A DNA stretch of 64,000 bases from NCBI RefSeq assembly GCF_003334355.1, contig NZ_QOWP01000005.1; one strand, given 5' to 3'. The number at the start of each line of letters is the position of its first letter. Positions within the stretch are counted from its first letter, which is position 1. A program made the position numbers and the translations under genes. Positions 2,866-51,192 of the stretch are shown here, piece by piece. Under the pieces are notes generated by a model, which worked only from the letters and a program-made list of their open reading frames with translations, had not been told where the DNA came from and ran no database searches. The DNA comes from Escherichia coli. GTDB lineage: Bacteria > Pseudomonadota > Gammaproteobacteria > Enterobacterales > Enterobacteriaceae.

Positions 2866-4443
2866 TCATTCCCACTCAATGGTAGCTGGCGGCTTGCCGC
2901 TGATGTCATACACCACGCGGGAAATACCGTTCACTTCATTGATAATGCGGTTGGAAACGCGACCGAGGAAATCGTACGGCAGATGCGCCCAGTGTGCGGT
3001 CATAAAGTCGATGGTTTCGACAGCACGCAGAGAGACAACCCAGTCATACTTACGACCATCGCCCATTACGCCAACGGAACGTACCGGCAGGAACACAGTG
3101 AACGCCTGGCTGACTTTGTCGTACAGGTCCGCTTTACGCAGTTCTTCAATGAAGATGGCGTCAGCACGGCGCAGCAGGTCACAGTACTCTTTCTTCACTT
3201 CACCCAGCACACGAACGCCAAGGCCTGGTCCCGGGAATGGGTGACGGTACAACATGTCGTACGGCAGGCCCAGCTCCAGACCAATCTTACGCACTTCGTC
3301 TTTGAACAGCTCTTTCAGCGGTTCAACCAGGTCCATCTTCATCTCTTTCGGCAGGCCGCCCACGTTGTGGTGAGATTTGATGACGTGTGCTTTACCGGTT
3401 GCAGACGCCGCAGATTCGATAACGTCAGGGTAGATGGTGCCCTGCGCCAGCCACTTCACGTCTTCCAGTTTCAGCGCTTCTTCATCGAATACTTCAACGA
3501 AAACGCGACCGATGATTTTACGTTTTGCTTCCGGATCGTTTTCGCCAGCCAGCGCTGACAGGAAGCGATCTTCTGCCGGAACGTGAACAATGTTCAGACC
3601 AAAGTGATCGCCAAACATATCCAGAACCTGCTCTGCTTCGTTGAGACGCAGCAGGCCGTTGTCGACGAATACGCAAGTCAGGTTTTTACCGATAGCGCGG
3701 TGCAGTAGCATTGCGGTTACGGAGGAATCCACGCCACCAGAGAGGCCGAGGATGACTTTATCGTCGCCTACCTGCTCACGGATGCGGGCTACAGCATCGT
3801 CGATAATTTTCGCTGGCGTCCACAGGGCTTCACACTGGCAGATATCACGCACAAAACGCTCCAGCATGCGCATACCCTGGCGGGTGTGAGTCACTTCCGG
3901 GTGGAACTGTACGCCATAGAAGCGTTTTTCTTCGTTAGCCATAATGGCAAACGGGCAGCTTTCGGTGCTGGCTACGGTGACGAAGTCGGACGGGATAGCG
4001 GTAACTTTATCGCCGTGGCTCATCCAGACATCGAGCAGCGGTTTACCGTCTGCGGTCAGCGCATCTTCGATACCGCGAACCAGTGCGCTGTCGTTTACGA
4101 CTTCAACCTGCGCGTAGCCAAATTCACGTTCGTTAGAGGCTTCAACGTGACCGCCCAACTGCATCGCCATGGTCTGCATACCATAGCAAACGCCGAATAC
4201 CGGTACGCCTGCTTCAAAGACATACTGCGGCGCACGCGGACTGTTTTCTTCAGTAGTACTTTCCGGGCCGCCGGAAAGAATAATGCCGCTTGGATTGAAG
4301 TCACGAATTTGTGCTTCTGTCACATCCCACGCCCACAGTTCGCAGTAAACGCCCAGCTCACGCACGCGGCGCGCAACCAGTTGAGTATACTGGGAACCGA
4401 AGTCCAGAATGAGGATGCGATGCTTATGAATGTTTTCCGTCAT
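2866..4443 (-). CDS. guaA: GMP synthase (glutamine-hydrolysing)
   Basis: ORF track 525 aa, [36 protein letters not shown]..., ends ...PPATIEWE. Confidence 0.97.
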
Positions 4444-4511: not shown

Positions 4512-5978
4512 TCAGGAGCCCAGACGGTAGTTCGGGGACTCTTTAGTAATGGTCACGTCGTGAACGTGGCTTTCCTGAATGCCCGCACCGCTGATACGTA
4601 CAAACTCCGCTTTAGTACGCAGTTCGTCGATAGTACCACAGCCGGTCAGGCCCATACAGGAGCGCAGGCCACCCATCTGCTGGTGAATGATCTCTTTCAG
4701 GCGACCTTTATAAGCTACGCGACCTTCGATACCTTCCGGCACCAGTTTGTCGGCAGCGTTATCGCTCTGGAAATAACGGTCAGAGGAACCTTTGGACATC
4801 GCGCCCAGGGAACCCATACCACGGTAAGATTTGTAAGAACGGCCCTGGTAGAGTTCGATTTCACCCGGAGATTCTTCAGTACCCGCCAGCATGGAACCCA
4901 CCATTACCGCGCTTGCGCCAGCGGCGATAGCTTTGGCGATGTCGCCGGAGAAGCGAATACCACCATCTGCGATAACCGGAATACCTGTGCCTTCCAGCGC
5001 TTCAACTGCGTCAGCAACGGCAGTGATCTGCGGAACACCTACGCCAGTCACGATACGAGTCGTACAGATAGAGCCAGGGCCGATACCGACTTTAACCGCG
5101 CTGCAACCAGCTTCTGCCAGAGCGCGTGCACCTGCAGCTGTTGCCACGTTGCCGCCGATGATTTGCAGATCAGGATATTTAGCACGGGTTTCACGGATAC
5201 GCTGCAGAACGCCTTCAGAGTGACCGTGAGAGGAGTCGATCAGCAGAACATCAACACCTGCGGCAACCAGCGCATCAACACGCTCTTCGTTACCCGCACC
5301 TGCGCCAACCGCTGCACCAACACGCAGACGGCCTTGCTCGTCTTTACAGGCGTTCGGTTTACGTTCCGCTTTCTGGAAATCTTTCACGGTGATCATGCCG
5401 ATCAGGTGGAATTCGTCATCAACCACCAGCGCTTTTTCAACGCGTTTTTCGTGCATTTTTGCCAGCACCACTTCACGGGCTTCACCTTCACGCACGGTGA
5501 CCAGACGCTCTTTCGGCGTCATGTAAACGCTAACCGGCTGGTTCAGGTCGGTAACAAAACGCACGTCACGACCGGTGATAATACCCACCAGCTCGTTTTC
5601 TTCGGTAACGACCGGATAGCCCGCAAAACCGTTACGCTCGGTCAGTTCTTTCACTTCGCGCAGCGTCGTGGTTGGCAGAACAGTCTGCGGATCAGTCACC
5701 ACACCAGATTCGTGTTTTTTCACACGGCGAACTTCTTCTGCCTGGCGTTCAATGGACATGTTTTTGTGGATAAAGCCGATACCGCCTTCCTGAGCCAGAG
5801 CAATAGCCAGGCGCGCTTCCGTTACGGTATCCATTGCTGCGGAAAGCATAGGGATATTCAGACGAATAGTTTTCGTCAGCTGGGTGCTGAGGTCAGCAGT
5901 ATTCGGCAGAACGGTAGAATGAGCAGGAACGAGGAGAACGTCGTCAAACGTCAGAGCTTCTTTAGCGATACGTAGCAT
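4512..5978 (-). CDS. guaB: IMP dehydrogenase
   Basis: ORF track frame; start trimmed to internal ATG ([23 protein letters not shown]...) giving 488 aa; the 23-aa N-terminal extension in the track is not supported. Confidence 0.95.
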
Positions 5979-34223: not shown

Positions 34224-34398
<175 letters not shown>

Positions 34399-34407
34399 CA
34401 ACGGCTG

Positions 34408-35148
34408 TTATTCGGCCTTGTTACCTTTATTCTGCTGCTCAATAGAAGCCAGAATCCCGCGCAGGATATTCAACTCCTGGCTTTCCGGGCGCGCACGGGT
34501 AAACAGACGGCGCAATTTATTCATCACCTGCCCCGGATGGTTTTCACGGATAAAACCGGTTGCCAGCAGCGTTTGTTCCAGATGACCATAAAAACGCTCC
34601 AGATCATCGACCAGCGGATACGGCGTCTCTTCATGCTCGACCTGCTCGCCATTTTCCTGAGTTGCCAGCCAGGCCATGCGCACTTCATAGGCAATAACCT
34701 GAACCGCCATCGCCAGGTTCAGCGAGCTGTATTCCGGGTTAGCCGCAATCGCGACATGATAATGGCATTTCTGCAACTCTTCATTGGTCAGGCCGACACG
34801 TTCGCGACCAAAAACCAGCGCCACCGGGGTATTTGCCGCTTCAGCAACGCTTTTCAAACCGCATTCGCGCGGGTCGAGCATCGGCCACGGCAGCGTGCGG
34901 GAACGTGCGCTGGTGCCCACCACCAGGCTACAACCGGCTAACGCTTCGTCGAGCGTATCGACGATGTGAGCATTACCAATCACATCGCTGGCCCCCGCCG
35001 CCAGGGCAATCGCCTGGGAGTCAGGTTTCACCAGTGGATTAACCAGCCACAGATTGGTTAATCCCATTGTTTTCATGGCACGGGCAACAGAACCCATATT
35101 GCCGGTGTGTGACGTCTCCACCAGCACAATTCGAATATTTTGCAGCAT
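34408..35148 (-). CDS. trmJ: tRNA (cytidine/uridine-2'-O)-methyltransferase TrmJ
   Basis: ORF track 246 aa, [30 protein letters not shown]... Confidence 0.93.
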
Positions 35149-45640: not shown

Positions 45641-46513
45641 TTACAGCCACTCTACCCGCAACGACATCTCTGAAGTTGTTGATTCCCCTGGTGCTAGCGC
45701 AATGAGATCACCCCCTTCCGGGCGATGATGATCATCCGGCGCATGGCTCATCGGTTCCAGACAGAAGAAATCAAACGCATATCCTTTATCAAACGCAGGG
45801 TCGGAAACAAAGATGAAATAACACGGTGCAGGTGGCGTCGTTTCCATGATGATGGCATAACCTTCCTGCGGCTGCTCGATGCGGGCCTGACCATTCCATC
45901 CGGCAAAACCATTGTTCACCCACTGGCGCGGCAACGGCGCGGGCTGGTTAAAATCCAGTTCCTGCGGTAGCTGCTCGCAAAACTCACCCGCCAGCCACTG
46001 CTCCCGCTCCAGCCAGTAACCGCTCGCCTGTGCCTGAATCCGCGTTTGCGGCGACAACGGAAAATAAGGATGCCAGCCGGTACCAAATGGCAGCGTCTCT
46101 GCCCCTTGATTGGTGACAGAGAGCGTCACCGTCAGCGTATCCGCCGTTAAATGAAACGCCTGACTTACCCGATAGTGATAGACACCGCTGCGATGTTCAT
46201 ACACCAGACACAAACTATCATCGCTGTGCGAGACACATTGCCACTCGCCCAGCCAGCCATCGCCGTGTAGATAGTGCGCATCCCACTCAACATTCGGTTG
46301 CAGTTGATACTCACGCCCCTGCCAGACAAAACGATTGCCGCTCACCCGGTTTGCAAATGGCACCAGCGGAAAACATGAGGCATCGGTTGCCACACCGCTT
46401 TTTTTACCAGGACGTAAGAGCGGCGTCGTATCGCGCCAGAAGCCTTCGATTACGCCGCCCTGGTCAGAAACGTCCAGCTTTAGCGACCCGTGGGATAAGG
46501 TATAGATGGTCAT
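45641..46513 (-). CDS. yphB: aldose 1-epimerase-family protein YphB
   Basis: ORF track 290 aa. Confidence 0.88.
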   Translation of the reverse strand: MTIYTLSHGSLKLDVSDQGGVIEGFWRDTTPLLRPGKKSGVATDASCFPLVPFANRVSGNRFVWQGREYQLQPNVEWDAHYLHGDGWLGEWQCVSHSDDSLCLVYEHRSGVYHYRVSQAFHLTADTLTVTLSVTNQGAETLPFGTGWHPYFPLSPQTRIQAQASGYWLEREQWLAGEFCEQLPQELDFNQPAPLPRQWVNNGFAGWNGQARIEQPQEGYAIIMETTPPAPCYFIFVSDPAFDKGYAFDFFCLEPMSHAPDDHHRPEGGDLIALAPGESTTSEMSLRVEWL

Positions 46514-46524
46514 CCGCTAACTCC

Positions 46525-47586
46525 TTAATCCGGGAAGTTAATCACAACTTTCCCGCATTTGCCGCTCGCCATCAGCGCATAGGCATCACCTGCCTGTTCC
46601 AGCGAGAAGCGATGGGTAATGGCGTTACGCGGCCACAGCTTCCAGTCCGTCAGATCATGGGCGCATTTTTCCATATGGAACAGACTGGTCACCCAGGAGC
46701 CGATAATCCGCCGTTGATGGTGCATCAGATCGGCGCTGACCTCGAATTCCACTTCTCCGGTTTCACCAATGTAAACCACCCGTCCCCAGTCAGCGGTGGA
46801 TTGCAGTGCCAGCAAGCGACCTGCGGCATTACCGGAACAATCGAGCGCAACATCCGCGCCACCGTGGGTGAGTTCGGCGATAATCTGCGGCAGACCTTCG
46901 GTGGTTGCTAAATAGCCGTGATCCATCACCCCTAACTGTTTTGCCATCGCCAGACGTTCCGGCAGCATATCAACGCCGATGATCCGTTTTGCACCGCGAC
47001 CTTTCGCCAGCATCATCGCCATCATGCCGACCGGCCCCAGACCGACCACCAGCACGTTATCGCTGCCGGAAACTTCGCCGCGCAAAATCCCTTCATAGGC
47101 CGTGCCAACGCCGCAACTGATAAACGCACCATCTTCGTAGCTCAGCGCATCCGGCAGGAGGATCAGATCTTTTTCTTCCGCCAGCAGATATTCGGCATGA
47201 CCGCCGTCACGCTGCCAGCCGTAAGCCGCTTTTCCTTTGCCAGTACAAGAGATAGGAAAGCCGCGGCGGCAGTTCGGGCAAAAACCACAGCCAGAAATGT
47301 GATACACCAGCACGCGGTCGCCCTCTTTAAAATGGCGGCAGCCTTGCCCCATCGCCACAATCTGCCCGCACGGTTCATGACCGTTGATAAATCCTTGGTA
47401 TAACGGTTTGTCGGGTGCCGCTGCCGTAGCGCGGTGCTGGTGGTAGATATAGTGGACATCGCTTCCGCAAATTCCGGAAGATTTCATTTTGATCAGTACC
47501 TGGTTAATCCCTGGTGTCGGCACCGCAACTTCCCGTAGATCGACGGTCGAATTTCCTGGTAAATAAGCTGCCAGCATCGTTTTCAT
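46525..47586 (-). CDS. yphC: Zn-dependent alcohol/polyol dehydrogenase-family protein YphC
   Basis: ORF track frame; start at MKTMLAAYLPG (353 aa); GHEPCG Zn-site and GLGPVG NAD-site motifs. Confidence 0.88.
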   Translation of the reverse strand: MKTMLAAYLPGNSTVDLREVAVPTPGINQVLIKMKSSGICGSDVHYIYHQHRATAAAPDKPLYQGFINGHEPCGQIVAMGQGCRHFKEGDRVLVYHISGCGFCPNCRRGFPISCTGKGKAAYGWQRDGGHAEYLLAEEKDLILLPDALSYEDGAFISCGVGTAYEGILRGEVSGSDNVLVVGLGPVGMMAMMLAKGRGAKRIIGVDMLPERLAMAKQLGVMDHGYLATTEGLPQIIAELTHGGADVALDCSGNAAGRLLALQSTADWGRVVYIGETGEVEFEVSADLMHHQRRIIGSWVTSLFHMEKCAHDLTDWKLWPRNAITHRFSLEQAGDAYALMASGKCGKVVINFPD

Positions 47587-47651
47587 AAATCCCTCATTAA
47601 CAATACGATTAATTTTCATCCCTGCCGCACCCGCGCCAGGGGCGTTAAGGT

Positions 47652-48650
47652 TTAGCGTTTCGCTTTACTGCTTCGCTGGGTCAGCAAGATATTCGCCAGC
47701 ACCGCCACCACGATGATGACGCCGCGTACCACCTGCTGGAAAAAGGAGTTAATACCGAGCAGCACCAGACCGTTACCGATTAGCGTAATCACCAGCACAC
47801 CAAGCAATGTACCGAACAGGGAACCGCGACCGCCGGAAAGTGCCGTACCGCCGACCACGACCGCGGCGATGACGTCAAACTCCAGACCGTTTGCGGCACC
47901 TGCGTTACCAGAACCGAGGCGCGCCGCCAACAAAATGCCGGTCACCGCCGCTAATAATCCCGAAAGGGTAAAGATAAGAATGCGCACCCGACGAACGTTG
48001 ATGCCGCACAACTGCGCCGCCGTAGCATTACCGCCAACGGCAAAAACCGAGCGCCCGAAGGCGGTTTTGCGGCTGATGAACACAAACAGCGCAAACAACA
48101 CAATCATGATCAGCGCGGATACCGGCACACCGAGAAATTGTCCGCCCAGCCAGTCCAGCACCTCGTTTTCGTCAATCGGCACTGGCAGGGCGTTCGTCAT
48201 AAACAGCCCCATTCAGCGCAGGGCGCTCCACAGCCCCAGTGTGGCAACGAAACTTGGTACGTTAAACACGCCGCGCAGCACCCCGGCGAGCGTTCCCATC
48301 AGCGCGCCTAACAGCAACACCAGCAGACAAGCAATCGCCAACGGAACTTCAAATTGCAGCAAAAATGCCAGGCACACCGAGACAAAAGCCACCATCGGCC
48401 CAACGCTGACATCAATCTCACCGGAGATAATAATCAGCGTCATCGCCCAGGCGGCAATCCCAATGGTGGCGGCATCGCGCAGCACGTTCATCTGGTTATT
48501 CAATGAGATAAAGCCAGGCGCGTTCAGGGAGAAGACCAGATAAAGAATGGCAATCACCACCAGCAAACCGATCTCATTAATATGGCGACTGACAAATTGT
48601 TTGAGCGAGACGCTCTTGCCCTGCGGCAATGGTAATGACGAAGCAGACAT
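47652..48650 (-). pseudogene. yphD: ABC transporter permease YphD interrupted by an in-frame TGA (codon 146); TGA immediately followed by ATG
   Basis: ORF track gives two contiguous same-frame ORFs (48213..48650, 145 aa; 47652..48212, 186 aa); 145+1+186 = 332 codons, the length expected for an intact permease; by alignment to RbsC the stop sits where a Gly is expected. Confidence 0.6.
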
Positions 48651-48674: not shown

Positions 48675-50186
48675 TCAGTGCACAGACAGAATGGCGGACA
48701 TCAGCTCATCCACATTGACCGGCGAGTGAAACTCCTGCGAGAACGTGCCGTGCTGTAATAACAGGATGCGGTCACACACCAGCGGCAACTCCTCCACTTC
48801 ACTGGAGATAAACACCACGCTTTTTCCTTCGGCAGCCAGCTCACGGACAATACGGTAAATCTGCTGTTTGGCTTCGATATCGACGCCGCGCGTTGGCTCG
48901 TCGAGCAACAAAATCTGGCTGGCGGCATAGACCCAACGACCGATCACTACTTTTTGCTGATTGCCGCCAGAAAGCGTGCCGATGGGCGTTTCGCTACTGG
49001 CGGCCTTGACCGTCATCCGCTGCATCACTTCTTCGGTCAGGCGGCGGATGGTGGACCATTGCAGCACTCCGTTGGCGCTGATTTTTTGCCGATTGGTCAG
49101 CACTGTATTTTCGTCAACGCCCAACCAGGGAATGATCCCCGCTTCTTTGCGGTTTTCTGGCGTATAGCCAATGCCGCGTTTCAGCATGTCGCCGTAATCG
49201 GGGCGCGTGATTTTCTCGCCGTTGATAACAATTTCGCCCTGTTCATACTCCTCCAGCCCAACAATCGCCTTCAGCAATTCACTGCGCCCTGCCCCCAGCA
49301 GACCAGCAATGCCGAGCACTTCGCCACGACGTAGCGTAAAACTGATATCCTCCAGCTTGGGCTTATGGCGTAACGCACGGACTTCCAGTACGGCCTGATC
49401 CACAATTTCCTGAGGGGCAACCGGCGCAATATCAACGTGATCGCGCCCGAGCATCAGCGACACAATATGATGCGTGGAGGTGTTTTCGAGCATCACATCG
49501 CCCGCCACCTGACCATCGCGCATAACGGTGGCACAGGAGGCAATGCGGCGAATTTCTTCCATCCGGTGGCTGACATAAATTACCGCCACGCCCAGTGCCG
49601 ACATCTTTTTCACCGCGCTGATCACCAGTTCAACTTCCGCACTGGCAAGCGAACTGGTAGGTTCATCAAGAATGACCACGCGCGGCTCGCCCTTCATCAC
49701 CCGCGCAATTTCCACCAGCTGCTTTTGCGCCGGGCTTAGTGTTGAAACAAGTTGTTCAGGACTAACGTCAACGCCCAACGCCTGTAAGCAACGTTGGGCA
49801 TCCTGCGCCATTTGCAGGTAATCAATCATGCCGTTGCGGCGGGGCCACTGACCGAGGCAGAAGTTTTCCGCCACCGTCAGCCCTTCCACCAGACTTAACT
49901 CCTGATAAACCGCGCGTACCCCCAGTTCAGCGGCACGGCGAGTCAGCGTAGCTTCGTCGCCTTCCAGTCGCGTCTCGCCAATCCAGATATCACCGCTATC
50001 CGGACGTTCGCTACCGGTAAGCATTCGAATGAGGGTCGATTTGCCCGCGCCGTTTTTGCCTAACAGCGCACGAACTTCGCCTTTATTGAGCGTGAAGTTA
50101 ACGTTATCCAACGCAACGACGCCGGGATAACGCTTATTTCCTGCCACCACTTTTGCTACCGGGACTGCCTCTGTTGCCGTGAACAT
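48675..50186 (-). CDS. yphE: ABC transporter ATPase with duplicated ATP-binding domains, YphE
   Basis: ORF track 503 aa; two Walker A motifs (GKNGAGKST; GLLGAGRS) and LSGG signatures. Confidence 0.92.
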   Translation of the reverse strand: MFTATEAVPVAKVVAGNKRYPGVVALDNVNFTLNKGEVRALLGKNGAGKSTLIRMLTGSERPDSGDIWIGETRLEGDEATLTRRAAELGVRAVYQELSLVEGLTVAENFCLGQWPRRNGMIDYLQMAQDAQRCLQALGVDVSPEQLVSTLSPAQKQLVEIARVMKGEPRVVILDEPTSSLASAEVELVISAVKKMSALGVAVIYVSHRMEEIRRIASCATVMRDGQVAGDVMLENTSTHHIVSLMLGRDHVDIAPVAPQEIVDQAVLEVRALRHKPKLEDISFTLRRGEVLGIAGLLGAGRSELLKAIVGLEEYEQGEIVINGEKITRPDYGDMLKRGIGYTPENRKEAGIIPWLGVDENTVLTNRQKISANGVLQWSTIRRLTEEVMQRMTVKAASSETPIGTLSGGNQQKVVIGRWVYAASQILLLDEPTRGVDIEAKQQIYRIVRELAAEGKSVVFISSEVEELPLVCDRILLLQHGTFSQEFHSPVNVDELMSAILSVH

Positions 50187-50208: not shown

Positions 50209-51192
50209 TTAGGGCAGACCATCAACGTGCGTTGCCAGCCACTGTTTACCGTCTTCCGTTTTGGTATAGAGATCGATAGGCACCTGAATCACTTTTTCAC
50301 CGTCGGCTTGTTTATTGATAACCTTCAATGTTTGCGCGAAAACAGCATTGCCCATTTTCTTACCGGAAATATCCACTACCGCTTTCAGCACCTGATTGTT
50401 TTCCAGCTCCTGAGCAATTTCGGTTGTCATATCCGAACCGAAAACAGCAATTTTTCCGGCCTGATTTTGATTACGTACCGCTTTTACCGCGCCGAGTGTC
50501 GCACCGCCCGATTCCCCCATAATGGCGTTGAGATCCGGCGTGGAGATAATCAGTTTTTCACCAACGGAAATCGCTTTATCTAAAACAGTCCCTTCCTGAT
50601 TAGCGACAATTTGCGCGCCGGGAACGCGGGCTTTTAATACTTCTTCAAACCCTTTACGTCGTTGCACACAAACTTCAAAGGCTTCGCAATTGATGACGGC
50701 AATTTTCGGCTGGTCAATTTTATTGGCAATAAAATAATCGGCGGCAGCGTTACCCAGTTTTTTACCAAATTCCAGTGGATCGCCGACCAGATACGCCGAG
50801 ACATATTTATCGACACCCTTTTGATTAATACAGGTGTTGTAGCAAATCACCGGAATACCCGCTTCACTGGCGCGACGAACGGTACGGCTACTGCCATTTT
50901 CAGACACTGCCGATAAAATAATGGCATCGACATTACGCGCCACGAGGGTATCAACAAAGGTACTTTCTTTCGAAATATCACCCTGGGCGTTAGTTTCAAT
51001 TAACTGTACCTGTACTGAAGAATCTTTTGCCGCATCCTGAACGCCCTGACGCACTCCAGCGTAATATCCCTGGGTATCAAGGTATATTGCACCAATGGTC
51101 ATTTCTTTATCCGCAGCCCTGGCAAATAGTGCGCTACCTAATAGCGTAGCCATTAATAATAGATTACGGGTTGTTCTCATTTTTTTAGGCAT
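50209..51192 (-). CDS. yphF: periplasmic sugar-binding protein YphF
   Basis: ORF track 327 aa; signal peptide; periplasmic-binding-protein fold-like composition. Confidence 0.9.
   Translation of the reverse strand: MPKKMRTTRNLLLMATLLGSALFARAADKEMTIGAIYLDTQGYYAGVRQGVQDAAKDSSVQVQLIETNAQGDISKESTFVDTLVARNVDAIILSAVSENGSSRTVRRASEAGIPVICYNTCINQKGVDKYVSAYLVGDPLEFGKKLGNAAADYFIANKIDQPKIAVINCEAFEVCVQRRKGFEEVLKARVPGAQIVANQEGTVLDKAISVGEKLIISTPDLNAIMGESGGATLGAVKAVRNQNQAGKIAVFGSDMTTEIAQELENNQVLKAVVDISGKKMGNAVFAQTLKVINKQADGEKVIQVPIDLYTKTEDGKQWLATHVDGLP

Follow-up and report, generated by a model that had tools for sequence, protein, structure and literature searches.

Does the yphD locus of this Escherichia coli strain carry a broken permease gene, or does it encode a permease in two pieces? 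In the window, by which we mean the whole stretch of 64,000 nucleotides that was analyzed, the minus-strand reading frame of yphD contains an in-frame TGA codon, and the next codon is ATG. The first-pass annotation, made from the letters alone, left two options for the TGA, a nonsense allele that inactivates the YphDEF transporter or a sequence error, and regarded termination–reinitiation at the adjacent ATG as conceivable. In the literature, YphDEF is described only as a putative sugar transporter (PMC8753852).

The in-frame stop codon of yphD

The features of the interrupted gene are listed below from its 5′ end (window coordinates).

48216..48650, minus strand: yphD 5′ fragment of 145 codons (residues 1–145) from the list of open reading frames, matching the first halves of the RbsC, AraH, and YjfF profiles
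48226..48229, minus strand: GGAG inside the coding sequence, 13 nt 5′ of ATG147, a weak and mis-spaced Shine–Dalgarno (SD)-like match
48213..48215, minus strand: premature TGA at codon 146; the ancestral codon is GGA (Gly146), and the change is G436T in the gene (window position 48215)
48210..48212, minus strand: ATG directly 3′ of the stop, the native Met147 codon (RGMGLF in the intact protein, R*MGLF in the window)
48189, minus strand: A462C, the second difference from the nearest alleles in a base-by-base comparison, synonymous at Ala154 (GCA to GCC)
47652..48212, minus strand: yphD 3′ fragment of 186 codons plus the natural stop (residues 147–332) from the list of open reading frames, matching the second halves of the RbsC, AraH, and YjfF profiles

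Read from the window sequence, the frame at the site is ...WSALR-TGA-ATG-GGG..., and every detail of the earlier description of a TGA splitting yphD in front of an ATG agreed with the sequence and with the open reading frames. The 145 codons of the 5′ fragment, the stop, and the 186 codons of the 3′ fragment make 332 codons. This had been given as the length expected for the permease, and it equals that of intact YphD in K-12 and in the nearest alleles, in which the 999-nt gene is colinear with the window without insertions or deletions. The window gene and the nearest allele are identical at 997 of 999 positions, the two differences being G436T and A462C. At the site of the stop, the nearest allele (WCHEC020031, L001) and K-12 MG1655 (L002) both have GGA (Gly146), as do all the orthologues compared at this codon, a comparison that the first-pass annotation had proposed. 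The single transversion from GGA to TGA that it had suspected is G436T.

As judged from these alignments, the TGA–ATG pattern reflects a single-base departure from the sequence of thousands of orthologues and is not a chance pattern. The ATG is not a newly created start. It is the gene's own Met147 codon, and therefore the adjacency of stop and ATG is accidental.

YphD protein and the effect of the truncation

Intact YphD consists of a single BPD_transp_2 domain (PF02653; residues 55–316, E = 1.7e-36). Its best NCBIfam matches were RbsC (226.6 bits; cut-off, 398) and AraH (222.3 bits; cut-off, 378), and with these two profiles the equivalog cut-off of a named permease was not reached. Since the scores are far below every equivalog cut-off, YphD is classified here, by profile comparison, as a CUT2-type sugar permease paralogue with no named specificity and no assigned substrate. 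Like the CUT2 permeases RbsC, AraH, YjfF, and MglC, it has one BPD_transp_2 domain, with RbsC and AraH as its top matches, and is encoded beside a two-domain ATPase and a periplasmic binding protein. It differs from them in scoring below all the equivalog cut-offs, and its open reading frame is interrupted in the window. Each of the two window fragments matched only its own half of the RbsC and AraH profiles.

The first-pass annotation had placed a conserved glycine at the stop. In our alignment of 81 homologues (32–56% identity), G146 is indeed kept in at least 90% of the sequences. The AlphaFold model of YphD built from this alignment had a mean pLDDT of 95.3 and a pTM of 0.92. In the model, residue 146 is located not in a loop but inside a predicted helix (residues 133–152), which is the fifth long helix of a permease of about 10 helices, and the 5′ fragment stops two-thirds of the way through it. 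A sequence search for solved structures found none among the relatives of YphD, and the closest solved folds found by structure were the type II importers BtuC, HI1471, and PsaC, with TM-scores of only 0.45–0.49. Beyond these distant folds, no solved structure was found onto which to map the split. According to the alignment and the model, a stop in the middle of the domain, in the middle of a helix, and at a conserved glycine would take out parts that YphD needs.

Readthrough of the UGA codon

Some full-length protein could still be formed if the stop were leaky. Here, tRNA-Trp would read through the UGA at a low rate, and a little YphD(G146W) would leave the transporter partly functional. 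UGA is the leakiest stop codon of E. coli, and UGA followed by A, as in yphD, is not among the strongest termination contexts. In addition, yphD has no other lesion. Against this, readthrough is typically ~1% or less, and Trp would replace, in a packed helix, the Gly that at least 90% of the homologues have. Neither a recoding signal nor a tRNA gene accompanies the codon. We consider a partly functional transporter of this kind very unlikely.

The search for recoding signals gave neither a SECIS-like element nor any other Rfam family at the site (two matches were far below the threshold), and the fold of the 76 nt around and 3′ of the stop was no better than that of shuffled sequence (z = −1.2). 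Selenocysteine insertion or another recoding RNA was rejected, as there was no Rfam match above noise and no fold beyond shuffled. The locus shares with selenocysteine recoding an in-frame UGA within a coding region. It differs in that it has no SECIS-like hairpin or Rfam match, the orthologues have Gly and not Sec or Cys, and the UGA is rare and derived. The 64-kb window contains no tRNA genes, which rules out a nearby suppressor tRNA.

Reinitiation at ATG147

Reinitiation after nonsense mutations is known from lacI and T4 rIIB, and some membrane transporters, such as LacY, work as two fragments when they are split in loops. The yphD locus could be read in the same way: ribosomes would reinitiate at AUG147, and the halves of 145 and 186 amino acids would assemble into working YphD. 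The stop and start codons abut at a distance of 0 nt (UGA-AUG), a geometry at which ribosomes restart efficiently in E. coli reporters (PMC10666635, PMC6728339), and the C-terminal half may well be produced. Efficient termination–reinitiation in such reporters was limited to overlapping or very closely spaced stop and start codons (PMC10666635). Upstream lies a weak GGAG, and all the partner genes of yphD are intact, both of which would suit such a permease.

The GGAG had been reported 13 nt 5′ of the ATG and is present there (48229..48226). Its best duplex with the anti-SD sequence is −5.6 kcal/mol, at a spacing of 12–13 nt; an SD match at least as good lies upstream of 26% of all ATG triplets on the sense strand of the operon. 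No SD motif was found at functional spacing before ATG147; the GGAG is at background level and too far away. Removal of the SD sequence cut reinitiation by 60–90% in three of five E. coli gene pairs and abolished it in one, so that its loss hurt four of the five (PMC6728339). Given that stop and start abut (0 nt), some reinitiation at ATG147, giving residues 147–332, is plausible even with the poor SD match.

A working two-piece permease is unlikely, because the split lies within a helix and the conserved Gly, which is nearly invariant, is lost. The arrangement is accidental, derived, and rare, and its start would be the native Met147 codon. It is not conserved among relatives, being found in none of 3,119 genomes and none of 74 metagenome contigs. 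A natural two-gene version was not found either. The search for naturally split homologues, i.e., half-size genes among the relatives, gave a single candidate, P0143 (190 aa, starting near residue 143), which was dismissed because it is a fragment at the edge of a contig and its frame stays open further upstream. Moreover, a lineage of another haplotype with the same stop has also lost yphB, which looks like operon decay. Taken with the mis-spaced SD-like element, these points make a functional split permease very improbable indeed.

Comparison with the coupled gene pairs of E. coli (PMC6728339, PMC10666635) leads in the same direction. The window shares with them the abutting stop and start at a distance of 0. 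Native coupled pairs show conservation, mostly come with an SD sequence in the proper place, and encode separate self-folding proteins, whereas in the window the junction interrupts a single domain, the SD-like motif, of background strength, is 13 nt away, and the arrangement is present in rare alleles only. No feature suggests that the junction is anything beyond an accident. That the TGA–ATG serves as an accidental coupling site, with the halves 1–145 and 147–332 co-assembling into working YphD, is scarcely conceivable; if true, it would be a naturally split ABC importer permease observed at its very origin, the split having arisen on two haplotypes. Of the first suggestion of termination–reinitiation, the statement that it is conceivable stands, given the favorable distance of 0 nt. 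The native Met147 codon, the distant and unexceptional GGAG, and the break in the middle of a helix speak against two half-permeases.

Hairpin downstream of the stop

The fold prediction gave one local structure 3′ of the stop.

48186..48210, minus strand: predicted local mRNA hairpin (gene nt 441–465), beginning at the last base of ATG147, with ATG151 in the loop

A stop-proximal hairpin at this place in yphD resembled the "ribosome termination structure" (PMC7518266). Its predicted energy is about −3 to −4.5 kcal/mol with A462 and about −9 to −10 kcal/mol with C462. On the T436 background, A462C is the most stabilizing (~4–6 kcal/mol) of the 43 possible synonymous changes in nt 421–480. Of 78 loci in which yphD is intact, however, 36 have C462; these are B2/D-like haplotypes, in which it is always paired with T463, and the combination of C462 with C463 occurs in the window and in one read-assembled contig (L004, described below) only. 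The hairpin is thus a normal part of many intact alleles, is not specific to the stop allele, and shows no sign of adaptation to the stop. Co-adaptation of the hairpin and the stop was ruled out on this basis. As a separate observation, hairpin strength differs between E. coli haplotypes with nt 462.

Rarity and authenticity of the allele

A full-length match to yphD was present in 5,377 of 5,426 complete E. coli genomes, the best being identical at 997 of 999 positions. A 61-mer centered on the stop was used to read gene nt 436, and T was found in 0 of the 3,119 complete E. coli genomes that had a comparable 61-mer. The best 61-mer match among these 3,119 was 59/61, with the mismatches exactly at the G436T and A462C sites. 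When metagenome contigs were scanned with a G/T-degenerate pattern, all 74 hits had G and none had T.

Both half-proteins were found verbatim in public collections. Most of the exact matches to the 145-aa fragment (L005–L013 and a Shigella sonnei record) come from genes that run off the end of their contig at codon 145 and have G at nt 436. Such matches arise from querying with an exact 145-aa string and are no evidence on the stop. The "Shigella sonnei" lead, which came from the NCBI name of the exact 145-aa fragment, was discarded for the same reason: the gene in that record is likewise truncated where its contig stops, at codon 145, and nt 436 is G.

A Logan contig (ERR4578542, L004) matches the window base for base across 6,050 nt (100% identity), with both the TGA and C462 present. 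It was assembled by Logan directly from reads and was seen in six samples or runs, which are possibly close relatives or one and the same isolate. A sequencing or assembly error, with an intact gene and a true G at window position 48215 (gene nt 436), would agree with the absence of T from all the matched complete genomes and metagenome contigs, but it is barely credible, given this independent read-based contig from six runs, a site at nt 436 that is not a homopolymer, ~55 genes elsewhere in the 64-kb window without a frameshift or stop, and the occurrence of G436T on another haplotype in several NCBI and ENA assemblies. Since an independent read-based assembly reproduces the TGA exactly, a sequence error is unlikely, and we take the stop to be a genuine, rare, lineage-specific allele. 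Thus, of the two options first offered, the nonsense allele is upheld by the GGA of the orthologues and the TGA of the Logan reads, and the same Logan assembly speaks against the error.

Other yphD lesions in E. coli

G436T also occurs on a K-12-like haplotype (L014, L016, L020, and L021; locus positions about 2998–3000). This haplotype differs from the window at nine other yphD sites and does not have C462. The sites that tell the two haplotypes apart flank nt 436 on both sides (390 and 462/480), and a shared origin of the change would imply gene conversion over a tract of less than about 90 nt. Independent recurrence, as judged by these flanking sites, therefore appears more likely than a shared origin. 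Such recurrence is unsurprising given the number of sequenced E. coli genomes.

In two of these assemblies from NCBI (L016 and L020), yphB is split into open reading frames of 105 and 162 aa (locus 4700–5572), pointing to decay of the entire yph operon in this lineage.

Frameshifts were also found in yphD. Two are +1 (nt 373 in L017 and nt 383 in L015), and two are −1 (nt 426 in L022 and nt 428 in L018). Gene callers call the same 186-aa open reading frame downstream of these different, independent yphD lesions. The gene seems to have been inactivated repeatedly, to go by the four frameshift assemblies just 5′ of codon 146, a count without a denominator.

The yph operon and the rest of the window

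The other genes of the operon are the following.

50209..51192, minus strand: yphF, periplasmic sugar-binding protein (Peripla_BP_4), intact
48675..50186, minus strand: yphE, ATPase subunit with two ABC domains (ABC_tran twice), intact
46525..47619, minus strand: yphC, zinc-dependent dehydrogenase, immediately downstream of yphD, intact
45641..46513, minus strand: yphB, aldose 1-epimerase (mutarotase), final operon gene, intact in the window

Their intactness fits either a very recent inactivation of yphD or a retained function. A stretch of 561 nt follows the stop, and if ribosomes leave it untranslated, the genes further downstream could be adversely affected. On the sense strand 3′ of the stop, G accounts for 33% and C for 25%, and there is no 78-nt window in which C exceeds G. 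With such a G-rich strand, a strong Rho loading site 3′ of the stop, and hence strong polarity, is not predicted by this heuristic. An internal promoter or terminator made by the change was rejected, because the counts in a scan of the operon equaled those in shuffled sequence.

yphD is the only broken gene among ~55 in the window. Comparison with AR_0369 (L003), the nearest complete genome, gave 47 SNPs over 40 kb, and among the 37 genes compared, an internal stop was present in yphD alone and there were no frameshifts. The left 24 kb was compared with strain 81, and 17 genes and yfhM had no internal stops or frameshifts. General genome decay and a poor assembly were ruled out, yphD being the sole broken gene.

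Two side observations came from the comparison with AR_0369. Between window positions 23909 and 64000, 16 of the 30 coding differences change the protein, including glyA E20K, qseE W4C, pepB Y178C, and hscA S612F (differences given without direction). Such a high non-synonymous share is often seen between very close relatives. In the spacer between iscR and trmJ (34224–34408), a 91-bp REP/BIME-like unit is present in two tandem copies (94% matching), of which AR_0369 has one.

Discussion

We conclude that the TGA is in all probability a recently derived nonsense allele of yphD, G146*, which most likely inactivates YphDEF in one lineage. The mutation and its rarity were observed here, and from the position of the break we infer the loss of transport. 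Here, we propose the following course of events. In one E. coli lineage, G436T would have turned the GGA of Gly146 into TGA. Translation would then end with residue 145, partway along the fifth long helix of the single-domain permease. With no full-length permease made, the YphDEF transporter would be inactive, despite intact yphF, yphE, yphC, and yphB. Some ribosomes may restart at ATG147, and a small fraction may read the UGA, but neither would be expected to restore meaningful function. Loss of yphD is evidently tolerated, since a ΔyphD mutant of K-12 is viable; lower starvation-induced antibiotic tolerance was reported for it (PMC8597633).

The allele resembles the pseudogenes that nonsense mutations have produced in single lineages of E. 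coli and Shigella among accessory genes for transport and catabolism. As in those cases, the lesion is a single-base nonsense change in a non-essential gene; the allele is derived, occurs rarely, and has intact neighbors, and independent lesions of the gene are present in other lineages. There is no substantive difference from such pseudogenes, and the window around yphD is free of general genome decay. yphD G146* is an ordinary pseudogene of a known kind and is already present in public assemblies.

In public databases, the locus is mis-annotated by gene callers as two ABC permease genes. The proper label is a yphD pseudogene (G146*), not two permeases, which matters little beyond annotation. 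The clean natural UGA-AUG junction is a possible test case for reinitiation after a nonsense codon. For strains of this lineage, no YphDEF transport should be assumed, which would become relevant if a substrate is assigned to the transporter or if the starvation-tolerance phenotype of ΔyphD is pursued.
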